DNA from: Candidatus Nealsonbacteria bacterium RIFOXYB1_FULL_40_15
Lineage (GTDB): Bacteria; Patescibacteriota; Minisyncoccia; Minisyncoccales; GWA2-38-27
Direction: 5' to 3'
Length of the DNA: 53,135 nt
NCBI GenBank assembly: GCA_001821555.1
Contig: MHMM01000006.1
Span: 1-53,135 of the forward strand
Below the pieces are notes generated by a model. That model searched no databases. It had not been told where the DNA came from and saw only the letters and a program-made list of their open reading frames with translations. Below, in pieces: positions 9,234 through 46,523 of this stretch (positions are counted from its first letter, which is position 1; the number at the start of each line of letters is the position of its first letter). A program made the translations under genes and the position numbers.

Positions 9234-9311
9234 TGCTGGCGTGTTAGGATTCGAACCTGTAACCTTTTCGTTTTAAAAACGAAATACTCTAACCAGTTGA
9301 GCTACACGCCC
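9234..9311 (-). tRNA. Degenerate tRNA-like gene (anticodon TTA, or Lys-TTT with a 2-nt loop insertion); probable pseudo-tRNA
   Basis: GGGCGTG-TA-GCTC-AACTGGTTA-GAGT...GGTTCGAATCC...CACGCC. It has a G1:A72 mismatch, two T-stem mismatches and a GCA end. Confidence 0.6.
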
Positions 9312-44469: not shown

Positions 44470-44781
44470 TCATTCCGTATCTTCTAAGAGATCGTCAAAT
44501 TCTGATTCTACATCCGCAAGCTTGGGAAGATTCAAGGAATCCAGCTTCTCGTTTATTCCCTCCTCTGAAGTAAGATCTGAATGGAACTGATTAACCACTT
44601 CTTCGGACGAGACAAGCTTATGATACTTGTCTTTTTCTTTAGCGGCGAATTCTTTTACGCTTTCTAAGTTTCCCCTCTCTTCTTCAGAATAGTCCTCATC
44701 TGAAGATTCAAGTATCGGATCAAAAACATTTTCATCCAAAAACTTCAAAAGCTTATCTTTTTTATCTTCCTTTTTTGCCAT
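44470..44781 (-). CDS. Acidic hypothetical protein
   Basis: Likely start MAKKEDKK; helical and acidic; no family recognised. Confidence 0.65.
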   Translation of the reverse strand: MAKKEDKKDKLLKFLDENVFDPILESSDEDYSEEERGNLESVKEFAAKEKDKYHKLVSSEEVVNQFHSDLTSEEGINEKLDSLNLPKLADVESEFDDLLEDTE

Positions 44782-44922
44782 AGCTATTATTTTTAAAAGT
44801 TGATAATGCGACAACTAGATACTAATCCATGGTCTCTTAAAAAACTGTTAAACAAAAACGGCCTCAAAGCCGTTATTTCTGCTCTCTGATTTTTATCTTC
44901 TTTTTTAATTAATTCCTATATA

Positions 44923-44951
44923 TTGACTCTTCAAAATTAAGAATGTAGAAT
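44923..44951 (+). promoter_or_regulatory. Sigma70 promoter ahead of the tRNA 5' copy
   Basis: TTGACT, 17-nt spacer, TAGAAT; predicted TSS a few nt before 44962. Confidence 0.7.
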
Positions 44952-44959
44952 ACAAATAC

Positions 44960-45010
44960 ATTCCGCGGTAGCTTCAGCCAAAGGCTGATCCGCCTCCGGC
45001 GGACAATGGT
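44960..45010 (+). repeat. Duplicated 5' end of tRNA-Asn interrupted by a 30-nt double hairpin
   Basis: ATTCCGCGGTAGCT + [TCAGCC-AAA-GGCTGA, TCCGCC-TCC-GGCGGA] + CAATGGT versus ATTCCGCGGTAGCTCAATGGT at 45246-45266. Confidence 0.85.
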
Positions 45011-45257
45011 TATGTTCTTTGTATATATTTTAAAAAGTTTAAAAAATGGCAAAAGATATATTGGTTGCACAGGAAAAGAACCAGAGATCAGAATAATAGA
45101 GCATAATTCTGGTTGCAATAAGTGGACTAGAGTAAATAAGCCCTTTAAGCTTATTTATAAAGAATTATATAATAGTAAAACGGAGGCACTAAAAAGAGAG
45201 AACTTTTTAAAATCTGGCCAAGGAAGAAAATTCATTGATCAACATATTCCGCGGTAG
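45006..45257 (+). CDS. Stand-alone GIY-YIG nuclease
   Basis: FVYIL...RYIGCT, R..EHN, T....P, EAL.RE..LK; start and stop codons both lie inside tRNA-derived sequence. Confidence 0.9.
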   Translation: MVMFFVYILKSLKNGKRYIGCTGKEPEIRIIEHNSGCNKWTRVNKPFKLIYKELYNSKTEALKRENFLKSGQGRKFIDQHIPR

Positions 45258-45319
45258 CTCAATGGTGGAGCAAGAAGCTGTTAACTTCAAGGTTGCAGGT
45301 TCGAGTCCTGCCCGCGGAG
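45248..45319 (+). tRNA. tRNA-Asn(GTT)
   Basis: Acceptor TCCGCGG/CCGCGGA, D arm GCTC/GAGC, loop CT-GTT-AA, T arm GCAGG-TTCGAGT-CCTGC, discriminator G, no encoded CCA. Confidence 0.95.
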
Positions 45320-45391
45320 CCGAGATAGACGAACAGGAACAAAACCTCCTATTTTTCCTTTTTTCAAAAAGCCTAATTTCCTATTCAAAAA

Positions 45392-45508
45392 CTGTTTCCA
45401 TATTTTTATGTTTTGCCCGTTCTGGCCTTGACTTTTTAGATAAATAAGCGCATAATTTAGCTATTGTTAATTTGTACATTCAATCCCCTGCATAGATCGA
45501 AAGGAGAA
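45392..45508 (+). repeat. 117-bp promoter/RBS module, copy 1
   Basis: Identical to 52769-52885 except 3 substitutions; contains TTGACT-17-CATAAT (45428-45456) and ends at AAGGAGAA. Confidence 0.9.
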
Positions 45509-45511
45509 GTC

Positions 45512-46363
45512 ATGCCGAACGTAGAAATTCATGGAATGGGCAAACGAGAGGAAGCCAATCAATTGGCAGACAAGATCTTCCAACTTTTTGCCGACAAACC
45601 ATATGTCGATGAGATGGTTGTCACCATCTTCGACACGTTCGTCCGGGACAAGGAAGGAGATTCGCAGCCGTTCCTCCGTCTGGCAAATTCATGCCAAGAC
45701 CACACGACAGAAATTATCCAGAAACTCCGCCGATTGGGACTTGATGTCGAGCACGTTCAGCTCCAGGCATTCTACCCCAAGCAGACAATCATCGCGGTTT
45801 CAGTCAACGAACTTAATAAGTTCGGCTGCCCTCACTGTGGATATCGTTCGGGAGCAATGCCTGTTTCCGGCGGCGGATCGGGAGTATGGCAGTGTGGAGA
45901 GTGCGGAAAGACTTGCTGCGTTCTTGCTGAAGGTGTCGTCAAGTCGACAATCGGCTTCAATGGAGAGTATCCCGAATTGCAGTCGCATCCCCGACGCGGC
46001 ACGCCAGCGCATGGGCGACCTGACAACAAGCCGGATAGCGGAGGCGAATTCTTCCGTTCTCGTGGAATCGGGCTTGATGACTGCAGTTGTTTCGTTTGCG
46101 GCACGAAAGGGCATCCCATGCTTCACAACATTGCGGCTTTCGTGCAGTGCAAGGAAGCTGGCGAACGGGTAGTTACAATGATCGGGCAGGGTGCAGTCCT
46201 CGACTATCGTGAATACGAACCCGATCGCGTTCAGGTCAAGGTTGGTGCATGCGATGCTCACTATGCTAACCTCGAAGAGCTCGACAGATTGGTCAGTAGT
46301 GGCACCATCAGCACCAATGTGGTCAAAATGGCAAGGGATTTTTCCCTAACTCCCTCCAAGTAA
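45512..46363 (+). CDS. Hypothetical protein with multiple Zn-ribbon motifs
   Basis: Start MPNVEIHG after AAGGAG; CPHC, CGECGKTC, CSCFVC, CDAH. Confidence 0.75.
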   Translation: MPNVEIHGMGKREEANQLADKIFQLFADKPYVDEMVVTIFDTFVRDKEGDSQPFLRLANSCQDHTTEIIQKLRRLGLDVEHVQLQAFYPKQTIIAVSVNELNKFGCPHCGYRSGAMPVSGGGSGVWQCGECGKTCCVLAEGVVKSTIGFNGEYPELQSHPRRGTPAHGRPDNKPDSGGEFFRSRGIGLDDCSCFVCGTKGHPMLHNIAAFVQCKEAGERVVTMIGQGAVLDYREYEPDRVQVKVGACDAHYANLEELDRLVSSGTISTNVVKMARDFSLTPSK

Positions 46364-46454: not shown

Positions 46455-46523
46455 TAACCCTTCAGTAAATTCAGGGTAAACCCCTTTCGGTGAACTCGGG
46501 TAAACGTCCCGCCCAAGGCGGGC
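46455..46523. repeat. Tandem imperfect repeat plus mini-hairpin
   Basis: CCCTTCAGTAAATTCAGGGTAAAC / CCCTTTCGGTGAACTCGGGTAAAC, then CCCGCC-CAA-GGCGGG. Confidence 0.55.

Follow-up and report, generated by a model that had tools for sequence, protein, structure and literature searches.

Among stand-alone relatives of the small GIY-YIG nuclease that is the subject of this report, only the Ssn proteins have been characterised. They bind hairpin repeats at the flanks of the genes that encode them and cut single-stranded DNA (ssDNA) beside these repeats on one strand, and the authors who described them point out that the resulting 'repeat-gene-repeat' layout is like that of an insertion sequence (PMC11893778). 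Here we describe a locus of Candidatus Nealsonbacteria bacterium RIFOXYB1_FULL_40_15 in which a gene for a GIY-YIG protein of 81 amino acids (aa) and a 30-nt double hairpin, designated H, are lodged in a tRNA-Asn gene, part of which is duplicated. The locus lies in contig MHMM01000006.1, and all coordinates given below without a contig or locus name are positions in the window, that is, in the whole 53,135-nt stretch analysed. The genome that carries it (G000) measures 761 kb and has a GC content of 39.6%. Comparative evidence makes it very likely that the locus is a selfish cassette of a kind that is gained and lost at tRNA genes. We also consider it probable that it belongs to a family of tiny selfish cassettes in tRNA genes of Patescibacteria-like bacteria, which would spread by copying that the nuclease starts.

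SsnA of Neisseria meningitidis (CDD cd10448; NTS/SRM repeats) and the protein described here are alike in being single-domain GIY-YIG proteins (~80-95 aa) that lack a DNA-binding domain. In both cases GC-rich directional hairpin repeats lie beside the gene and extra copies occur in the genome, a likeness of layout and not one of assignment to cd10448. With 81 aa in a single GIY-YIG domain, the protein follows the Ssn pattern of size and domain content (about 90-100 aa), and H, which lies directly upstream of the ORF (open reading frame) and is multi-copy in the genome, follows the Ssn pattern of hairpin repeats. The setting is different. Here the hairpin lies within a tRNA stub and the gene is wedged between that stub and an intact tRNA, whereas the Ssn paper does not contain the word tRNA (PMC11893778).

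SegB of phage T4 is likewise encoded by an intron-less GIY-YIG gene among tRNA genes, in the tRNA gene cluster, and shows presence/absence polymorphism (PMC2330249). It is inherited preferentially, as it cuts DNA that lacks it and is copied in by recombination (PMC2330249), but it has no hairpin module, tRNA duplication or stub and resides in phages, not in cells. The IS200/IS605 elements and the REP/RAYT systems are also very small, have hairpin ends that are recognised on one strand, leave many ORF-less hairpin copies (REP/BIME-like) and are strand-biased. Their HUH Y1 transposases, however, both cut and rejoin DNA and make no target duplication, whereas a GIY-YIG nuclease only hydrolyses, so that any rejoining would have to come from host repair. 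Integrase islands and prophages resemble the present locus in keeping their tRNA landing site functional through a brought or duplicated part, with a partial tRNA repeat at the other end. These elements are kilobases long, rely on a recombinase of the tyrosine or serine type and mostly duplicate the 3' part, whereas the unit here has 0.29 kb and no recombinase, and units of its kind duplicate the 5' or the 3' part. No description of mini GIY-YIG cassettes lodged in tRNA genes was found in the literature. The family is apparently both widespread and unpublished, the nearest known kinds being stand-alone GIY-YIG/hairpin pairs and free-standing homing genes.

Structure of the tRNA-Asn cassette

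All elements of the cassette lie on the forward strand, in the order promoter-like site, tRNA-Asn nt -2 to 12, H, tRNA-Asn nt 13-19, GIY-YIG ORF and intact tRNA-Asn. An earlier note, made from the sequence alone, had set out this layout, and it was confirmed base for base with every element in its place. The first tRNA fragment, stub A (ATTCCGCGGTAGCT, 44960-44973), occupies the place where the tRNA would begin after its promoter and is an exact 14-nt direct repeat of 45246-45259; by simple arithmetic, ~0.001 occurrences of such a repeat are expected within 800 nt. H (44974-45003) splits the stub between tRNA nt 12 and 13. It consists of hairpin 1 (TCAGCCAAAGGCTGA, TCAGCC-AAA-GGCTGA, 44974-44988) and hairpin 2 (TCCGCCTCCGGCGGA, TCCGCC-TCC-GGCGGA, 44989-45003), each with a stem of 6 bp and a 3-nt loop, and folding H as ssDNA recovers both stems (z -2.29). 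The stub then resumes as segment B, CAATGGT (45004-45010), which is nt 13-19 of tRNA-Asn.

The nuclease gene follows at 45012-45257. The earlier note had placed its start at the ATG within the D-loop sequence (45006), which is in frame and would give 83 aa, and its end at the TAG of the tRNA. The end stands, and the start is better placed at the second ATG (45012), which gives 81 aa and at which all 32 aligned homologues open with M-F-x-V-Y. The final three codons and the stop fall within tRNA-Asn nt 1-10, and the TAG (45255-45257) is formed by tRNA nt 8-10 (T8-A9-G10). The intact tRNA-Asn(GUU) occupies 45248-45321 (ARAGORN; Rfam 66.5 bits) and is the sole tRNA-Asn of the genome, which the host keeps because a complete copy stands after the cassette. 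The insert between the stub and the intact gene has 290 bp and holds only the nuclease gene and the double hairpin.

The only promoter-like site upstream of the cassette and of tRNA-Asn is TTGACT-17-TAGAAT (44923-44951), a putative promoter that matches the consensus at 10 of 12 positions; the region around the cassette contains four promoter-like matches of such quality against 3.3 expected. Its -35 and -10 elements are kept in the orthologous metagenomic locus L065, in which the sequence further upstream is unrelated. As no second promoter-like site precedes the tRNA, the tRNA is probably transcribed through the cassette. The cassette appears to have no promoter of its own, and the promoter of the tRNA would drive both in a single transcript, which supports the earlier proposal that the unit makes use of that promoter.

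The GIY-YIG gene is the only ORF of the cassette, which encodes neither a transposase nor a recombinase of the kind found in insertion sequences. Neither an integrase nor a transposase was detected when the four neighbouring genes were scanned against Pfam, the sole exception being a weak match, below the cut-off, of the downstream 283-aa ORF to an IS1595-type Zn-ribbon. Scanned by E-value against Rfam, 44700-45500 gave only tRNA and no group I intron core. These results agree with the earlier description of a GIY-YIG element of minimal size that sits in a tRNA gene, regenerates it and has no integrase, transposase or group I intron core. Terminal inverted repeats (TIRs) were not found at the tRNA-Asn locus, and the target duplication is not of fixed length, its range in the family being 8-35 nt. 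Population data were the Logan contigs of eight public DNA runs. Several groundwater and soil runs, independent of one another, have contigs with the cassette arrangement, which is therefore no assembly artefact.

Recurrence at other tRNA genes

The locus was compared with the genomes of 61 relatives and with 80 metagenomic loci that encode GIY-YIG homologues (L-numbered); the closest genome available (G022), whose rpoD is ~87% identical to that of G000 in translation, was compared whole. At L065, where the nuclease has 78% protein identity, the layout is the same, with stub nt 1-12, a 30-nt H, the same seven nucleotides CAATGGT and an ORF that ends at the TAG of the tRNA. Of the homologues for which a tRNA was called, the five closest (78, 70, 65, 63 and 62% identity) are all at tRNA-Asn. 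Among these tRNA-Asn cassettes, H stands after nt 8 in L066 and in the anticodon stem in L071.

A tRNA lies within 300 nt of the homologue at 47 of the 80 metagenomic loci, in every case on the same strand (47:0), and is downstream of the ORF in 36 and upstream in 11. In the relatives' genomes a tRNA is nearby at 12 of 27 loci, again always on the same strand (12:0). These 12 include two transfer-messenger RNA (tmRNA) genes, next to which family members sometimes sit. An exact copy of at least 7 nt of the tRNA 5' end was found upstream of the ORF at 19 of the 34 loci with a downstream tRNA. GC hairpins were detected just after the stub in 16 of these 19 stub-bearing loci and often measure exactly 30 nt. 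After H the tRNA sequence resumes for mostly 4-9 nt. The idea that the unit targets tRNA 5' ends did not hold: sites of H across the family include nt 8/9, the D arm, the anticodon arm and the T loop, and the duplication, which runs from a tRNA end to H, takes in 8-35 nt of the 5' or the 3' part.

G000 itself contains four further clear GIY-YIG paralogues (~35-43% identical). The tRNA-Gln(ttg) locus has the same layout as tRNA-Asn, with a promoter, tRNA nt 1-11, an 18-nt perfect palindrome, tRNA nt 12-30, an ORF and the intact tRNA. At tRNA-Ser(gga), a stub of nt 1-10 with GC hairpins and an ORF stands in front, and hairpins with a second ORF stand behind. An ORF-less form at tRNA-Lys(ttt) consists of stub nt 1-12, H, CAATGGTA, 35 nt and the intact tRNA; its H lies at the same nt 12/13 and is identical to that of tRNA-Asn at 29 of 30 positions, the one difference being a loop base. 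Mirror-image forms lie behind tRNA-Arg(gcg), Pro(ggg) and Leu(caa); in these, H interrupts the T loop of a 3' stub between T55 and C56.

In a second variant of the family the ORF lies within TIRs of ~15-20 bp. L122, for example, reads tRNA-Ala nt 1-11, TIR-ORF-TIR, tRNA-Ala nt 1-76, and L143 contains an extra ORF-less TIR copy, each unit being flanked by the same 11 nt. Tandem or nested copies (L143, L070) are each flanked by the same tRNA stub. GIY-YIG homologues have a patchy, multi-copy distribution and are present in 27 of the 61 relatives. The G000 paralogues are scattered over the family tree, on which the tRNA partner switches at least 20 times among 47 labelled tips, against 31-35 times in ten shuffles.

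Other arrangements were also observed. L070 (1-480) is a tandem array of the cassette unit, in which one GIY-YIG ORF stands between two tRNA-Pro(cgg)-like 3' parts that each have H in the D loop. No tRNA is near the members of a large homologue clade (L094, L103, L105, L115 and ~30 more loci), which lie between protein genes in units of roughly 330 bp within ~18-bp TIRs (CCCCCACACCAxAACGAGC ... GCTCGTTTGGTGTGGGGG); no RNA genes were found beside this clade, which represents the TIR-bounded variant. In L068 (1141-1570), and also in L069, a tRNA that begins GGGCGGTTAGCTCAGTT seems to be split. Its first 17 nt, H and GGTTAG precede the GIY-YIG ORF, and in L068 the ORF is followed by a complete tRNA-Val(tac) and then by the 3' part of the split tRNA, ending in GGAAGTTCGAGTCTTCCACCGCCCA. 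L067 (1440-1640) contains a tRNA-like gene that is normal as far as the anticodon loop and continues with at least 170 nt of GTTCAGAGACTA-like sequence, possibly cut by the end of the locus; a group I intron suspected in this tRNA had no Rfam match at gathering level.

Presence and absence of cassettes

Comparison of G000 with G022 identified syntenic empty sites for three cassettes. The genes upstream of tRNA-Gln(ttg), Ser(gga) and Lys(ttt) in G022 are orthologous to those in G000, and the inserts of ~305, 330 and 73 nt are absent. The reverse case was also found: in G000, 6 nt separate tRNA-Tyr from tRNA-Thr, whereas the interval between these two tRNAs in G022 holds a GIY-YIG gene with long AT-rich hairpins, along with other genes. 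The tRNA-Asn of G022 is identical to that of G000 at 74 of 74 positions and has a plain promoter and no cassette, but it sits elsewhere, after rpoD. G000 has no tRNA after rpoD, and this tRNA-Asn site is therefore not comparable as a syntenic empty site. The comparison with relatives that the earlier note had put forward thus found syntenic empty sites for the paralogous Gln, Ser and Lys cassettes.

The similarity between L065 and the window is confined to the block that starts at the promoter and ends ~45 nt beyond the tRNA. In the eight runs the cassette form stands at the depth of its flanks, and no polymorphism of this copy is visible. Joints seen in public reads came only from short-sided pieces or from runs that lack the organism's own flanks, and they were not counted as empty sites or circles.

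Between G000 and G022, tRNA-Asn (74/74) and tRNA-Ala(ggc) (72/74) are nearly or fully identical, the other 26 shared tRNAs are 56-90% identical, and the median tRNA identity is ~72%. The tRNA-Asn gene itself may have been exchanged recently, a suggestion based on one data point at loci that are not syntenic.

The hairpin module

In contigs of the eight runs H is found at 5-100 times the depth of its flanks, with many different neighbours and with sharp ends at 44974 and 45003-45007, and it is therefore a discrete high-copy unit in these communities. G000 contains 25 strict hairpin units, seven of them within 150 nt of tRNAs against 0.5 expected, a 15-fold enrichment. The exact motif TCCGCCNNNGGCGGA occurs in 26 of the 61 relatives, compared with two for a reversed control, and goes with the presence of GIY-YIG homologues (17/27 vs 9/34; odds ratio 4.7, p 0.0085).

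The polarity of H relative to the sense strand of the tRNA is the same in all 16 distinct 30-nt units, in 5' and 3' stubs alike, and is marked by an A-rich first loop, a T/C-rich second loop and a T directly 5' of the unit. An inverted orientation of H in the T-loop stubs was considered and rejected, as loop composition gives a single polarity throughout. In an unbiased count of C-N-GCC-NNN-GGC-N-G instances the two stem N's were complementary in 69 of 79, with four pair types. This count replaced one made on 14 chosen hairpins, which was discarded as circular because perfect stems had been preselected. H differs from its counterpart in L065 at three of 30 positions, two of which form a compensatory A:T to C:G change. 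The G7->A change of the tRNA in L065 recurs in the stub of that locus, and the tRNA itself has compensated stem changes. The comparisons argue that H is a real, selected and strand-polar cis element that recurs at many tRNAs, and they bear out the earlier view of the twin hairpin as a cis element.

A second class of long AT-rich hairpins with CG clamps (CACGTAATAAATTT...AAATTTAAACGTG) was observed in contigs C4 (108200-108980) and C17 (40200-40300) and in contigs C6 and C20 of G022. These hairpins come in pairs directly after tRNA 3' ends and before another GIY-YIG paralogue (at tRNA-Ser(tga), and at tRNA-Tyr in G022). This class suggests that there are nuclease lineages with different cognate hairpins. 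In the window, a lone H-like hairpin (CCCGCCCAAGGCGGG) is present at 46508-46522, after the 283-aa ORF.

The nuclease

The ORF matches the GIY-YIG family PF01541 (E 1.4e-14; 54.6 bits, cut-off 22.6), and an NCBIfam search assigned no family to it. Y5, Y16, R27, H31 and E63 are invariant in 32 homologues, and N32 and R62 are conserved in at least 90%; the protein has the catalytic residues of the GIY-YIG superfamily (Tyr, Tyr, Arg, His/Asn, Glu). An AlphaFold 2 model (pLDDT 96.1) has the three-stranded sheet and helices of the GIY-YIG fold. Its best Foldseek matches are the UPF0213 proteins BH0048 and EF2693, the Slx1 nuclease domain (TM 0.65-0.69), the I-TevI catalytic domain and UvrC-N, and the nearest PDB sequences are UPF0213 proteins (1ywl, E 8.6e-6; 1zg2). 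UPF0213 (YhbQ-like) proteins and the Slx1 domain are thus the nearest solved structures. These PDB entries assign no function to UPF0213. Slx1 cuts branched or structured DNA and, unlike the present protein, has a RING domain and needs Slx4.

All 81 aa lie within the single GIY-YIG domain, which leaves no room for a DNA-binding domain, and the protein does not have the homing-endonuclease architecture of a nuclease joined to a second domain that reads sequence. Seg proteins have more than 200 aa and carry DNA-binding domains. Comparison with L065 (dN, nonsynonymous divergence, 0.11; dS, synonymous divergence, 1.37; dN/dS 0.08) indicates that the ORF is under purifying selection. With its catalytic residues intact and its fold confidently modelled, the 81-aa protein is predicted to be an active nuclease.

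Neighbouring genes and other features of the window

The four genes around the cassette encode a LysM protein, a protein of no known family, the weak Zn-ribbon protein and a NYN protein (Pfam). The Zn-ribbon match is in the 283-aa ORF just downstream of tRNA-Asn (45512-46363, + strand), which looks foreign with a GC content of 50-57% against 39.6% for the genome. Elsewhere in the window, ARAGORN called a tRNA with the anticodon UUA ('tRNA-Stop') at 9235-9311 on the minus strand. Such a tRNA would decode UAA stop codons, and the call could point to a suppressor, an erroneous tRNA prediction or unusual decoding.

Proposed mode of spread and alternative explanations

Spread of the cassettes would be started by the nuclease and would depend on host recombination. 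A break would be made in or beside tRNA-gene DNA. The left end of the break would keep tRNA nt 1 to p, which becomes the stub, and the right end would copy the cassette and the 5' part of the tRNA from an occupied copy. The product, stub-cassette-tRNA, would carry portable homology arms in conserved tRNA sequence, with stub A on the left and the rest of the tRNA on the right. H would be the structure that the small nuclease grips, as in the Ssn pairs, probably as ssDNA of one strand, and its fixed polarity fits one-strand ssDNA cutting of the Ssn type. Such a route would account for the variable length of the stubs, for their start at the first base of the tRNA, for tandem units with the same stub and for the identity of each stub with its own tRNA. 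Classical homing by a sequence-specific cut in double-stranded DNA is doubtful for an 81-aa single-domain protein. If the enzyme acts like Ssn, spread would instead proceed via recombinogenic ends or single-stranded intermediates.

Several points weigh against a selfish cassette that spreads in this way. An enzyme that cuts beside H, as Ssn does, would make its break in the occupied allele. The occupied allele also retains an intact tRNA, so that a simple logic of cutting the empty site and sparing the full one fails, and a protein of 81 aa that lacks a DNA-binding domain seems ill suited to recognise an intact tRNA gene in double-stranded form. A role of H as a self-immunity mark, also proposed in the earlier note, is conjectural, and the intact tRNA copy is still there in the occupied allele. 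The proposed route leaves unexplained how a stub that matches a new tRNA comes about when this tRNA is first invaded. H departs from the published SRM consensus (HGTCWY..YYVSBRH..WNVSBRG..RNCYNB), which has no matches in the window and three in the genome, against 1-3 in shuffles. Three metatranscriptomes from one of the studies contained nothing that matches the stretch. No empty tRNA-Asn allele, circle or deletion joint of this organism was found in the Logan contigs of the eight runs, which drop rare variants, and the tRNA-Asn cassette lineage keeps its layout at 78% protein identity and a dS of about 1.4. The tRNA-Asn copy may therefore be long-resident. Persistence over this distance fits long vertical residence, possibly with a role useful to the host, as well as it fits repeated homing.

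The same persistence is also an argument for a different explanation, in which the nuclease and the hairpin are a domesticated, immobile, Ssn-like pair that serves the host. Its ssDNA cut beside H would modulate recombination or DNA uptake at tRNA loci, and the stubs would be old scars. We regard this as rather unlikely. Strong purifying selection on the ORF, an H conserved and a layout unchanged in the orthologue over a dS of about 1.4, and the lack of an empty allele in the population sampled by the eight runs all speak for it, as does the finding that Ssn of Neisseria modulates natural transformation (PMC11893778). Such a pair should not, however, come and go at syntenic sites in both directions between close genomes, nor have a patchy, multi-copy distribution with partner switching and tandem copies, and scars would not be expected to stay identical to their tRNA with no sign of decay. 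Solo copies of H at tRNA-Lys, Arg, Pro and Leu could mean that two independent things have been brought together, namely a repeat like REP or a miniature inverted-repeat transposable element (MITE), which inserts into tRNA-like DNA and survives only in non-functional stubs, and a separate selfish GIY-YIG gene that lands by tRNAs, their adjacency being secondary. The position of H also varies among related tRNA-Asn cassettes (12/13, 8/9 and about 29/30), and nine genomes have the hairpin without a GIY-YIG match while 10 show the reverse. Yet non-autonomous copies are expected of any mobile family, and independence is difficult to reconcile with the association of hairpin and GIY-YIG at the genome level, with hairpins just after the stub in 16 of 19 loci and mostly 4-9 nt of tRNA sequence before the ORF region, with the single polarity of H relative to both ORF and tRNA, or with the TIR variant, which holds the ORF inside the inverted repeat. 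We give this combination only a small chance.

A reading at the RNA level is more improbable again. The stub and hairpins would form a structured 5' leader that controls the stability, RNase P processing or translation of a transcript shared by the nuclease mRNA and the tRNA, and the hairpins would be selected as RNA. Fixed polarity on the transcribed sense strand and covariation in the stems would be expected of such a leader, and as the ORF stops inside the tRNA, RNase P cleavage would leave a non-stop mRNA. However, H is also found in 3' stubs downstream of tRNAs, where there is no ORF to regulate, and the duplication, the empty sites and the tandem copies would be left unexplained. No Rfam family matches.

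The selfish cassette can be carried a step further, to a conjecture that we regard as rather unlikely. At about 290 bp, the unit would be the smallest self-contained mobile DNA yet seen, free of transposase and recombinase, with a nuclease that uses H as a portable ssDNA handle and, where tRNA genes are heavily transcribed, attacks their folded sense strand at the exposed D, anticodon or T loop. Host repair would copy the cassette in, with all the homology lying within the tRNA. The tRNA would then be both target and vehicle across species, with homogenisation of tRNA genes between lineages as a by-product.

Implications

Stubs of this kind can pass for pseudo-tRNAs in genome annotation, and in G000 the only tRNA-Asn probably depends on transcription through a foreign gene. 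If our explanation is correct, it would account for the many tRNA fragments and unannotated 'GIY-YIG nuclease family protein' genes that these genomes contain. It would also give the newly described single-domain, hairpin-guided nucleases a natural role, in mobility, and would supply small nuclease/hairpin pairs of differing specificities. The tRNA genes of ultra-small bacteria would then be host to a large and unrecognised population of minimal selfish elements.

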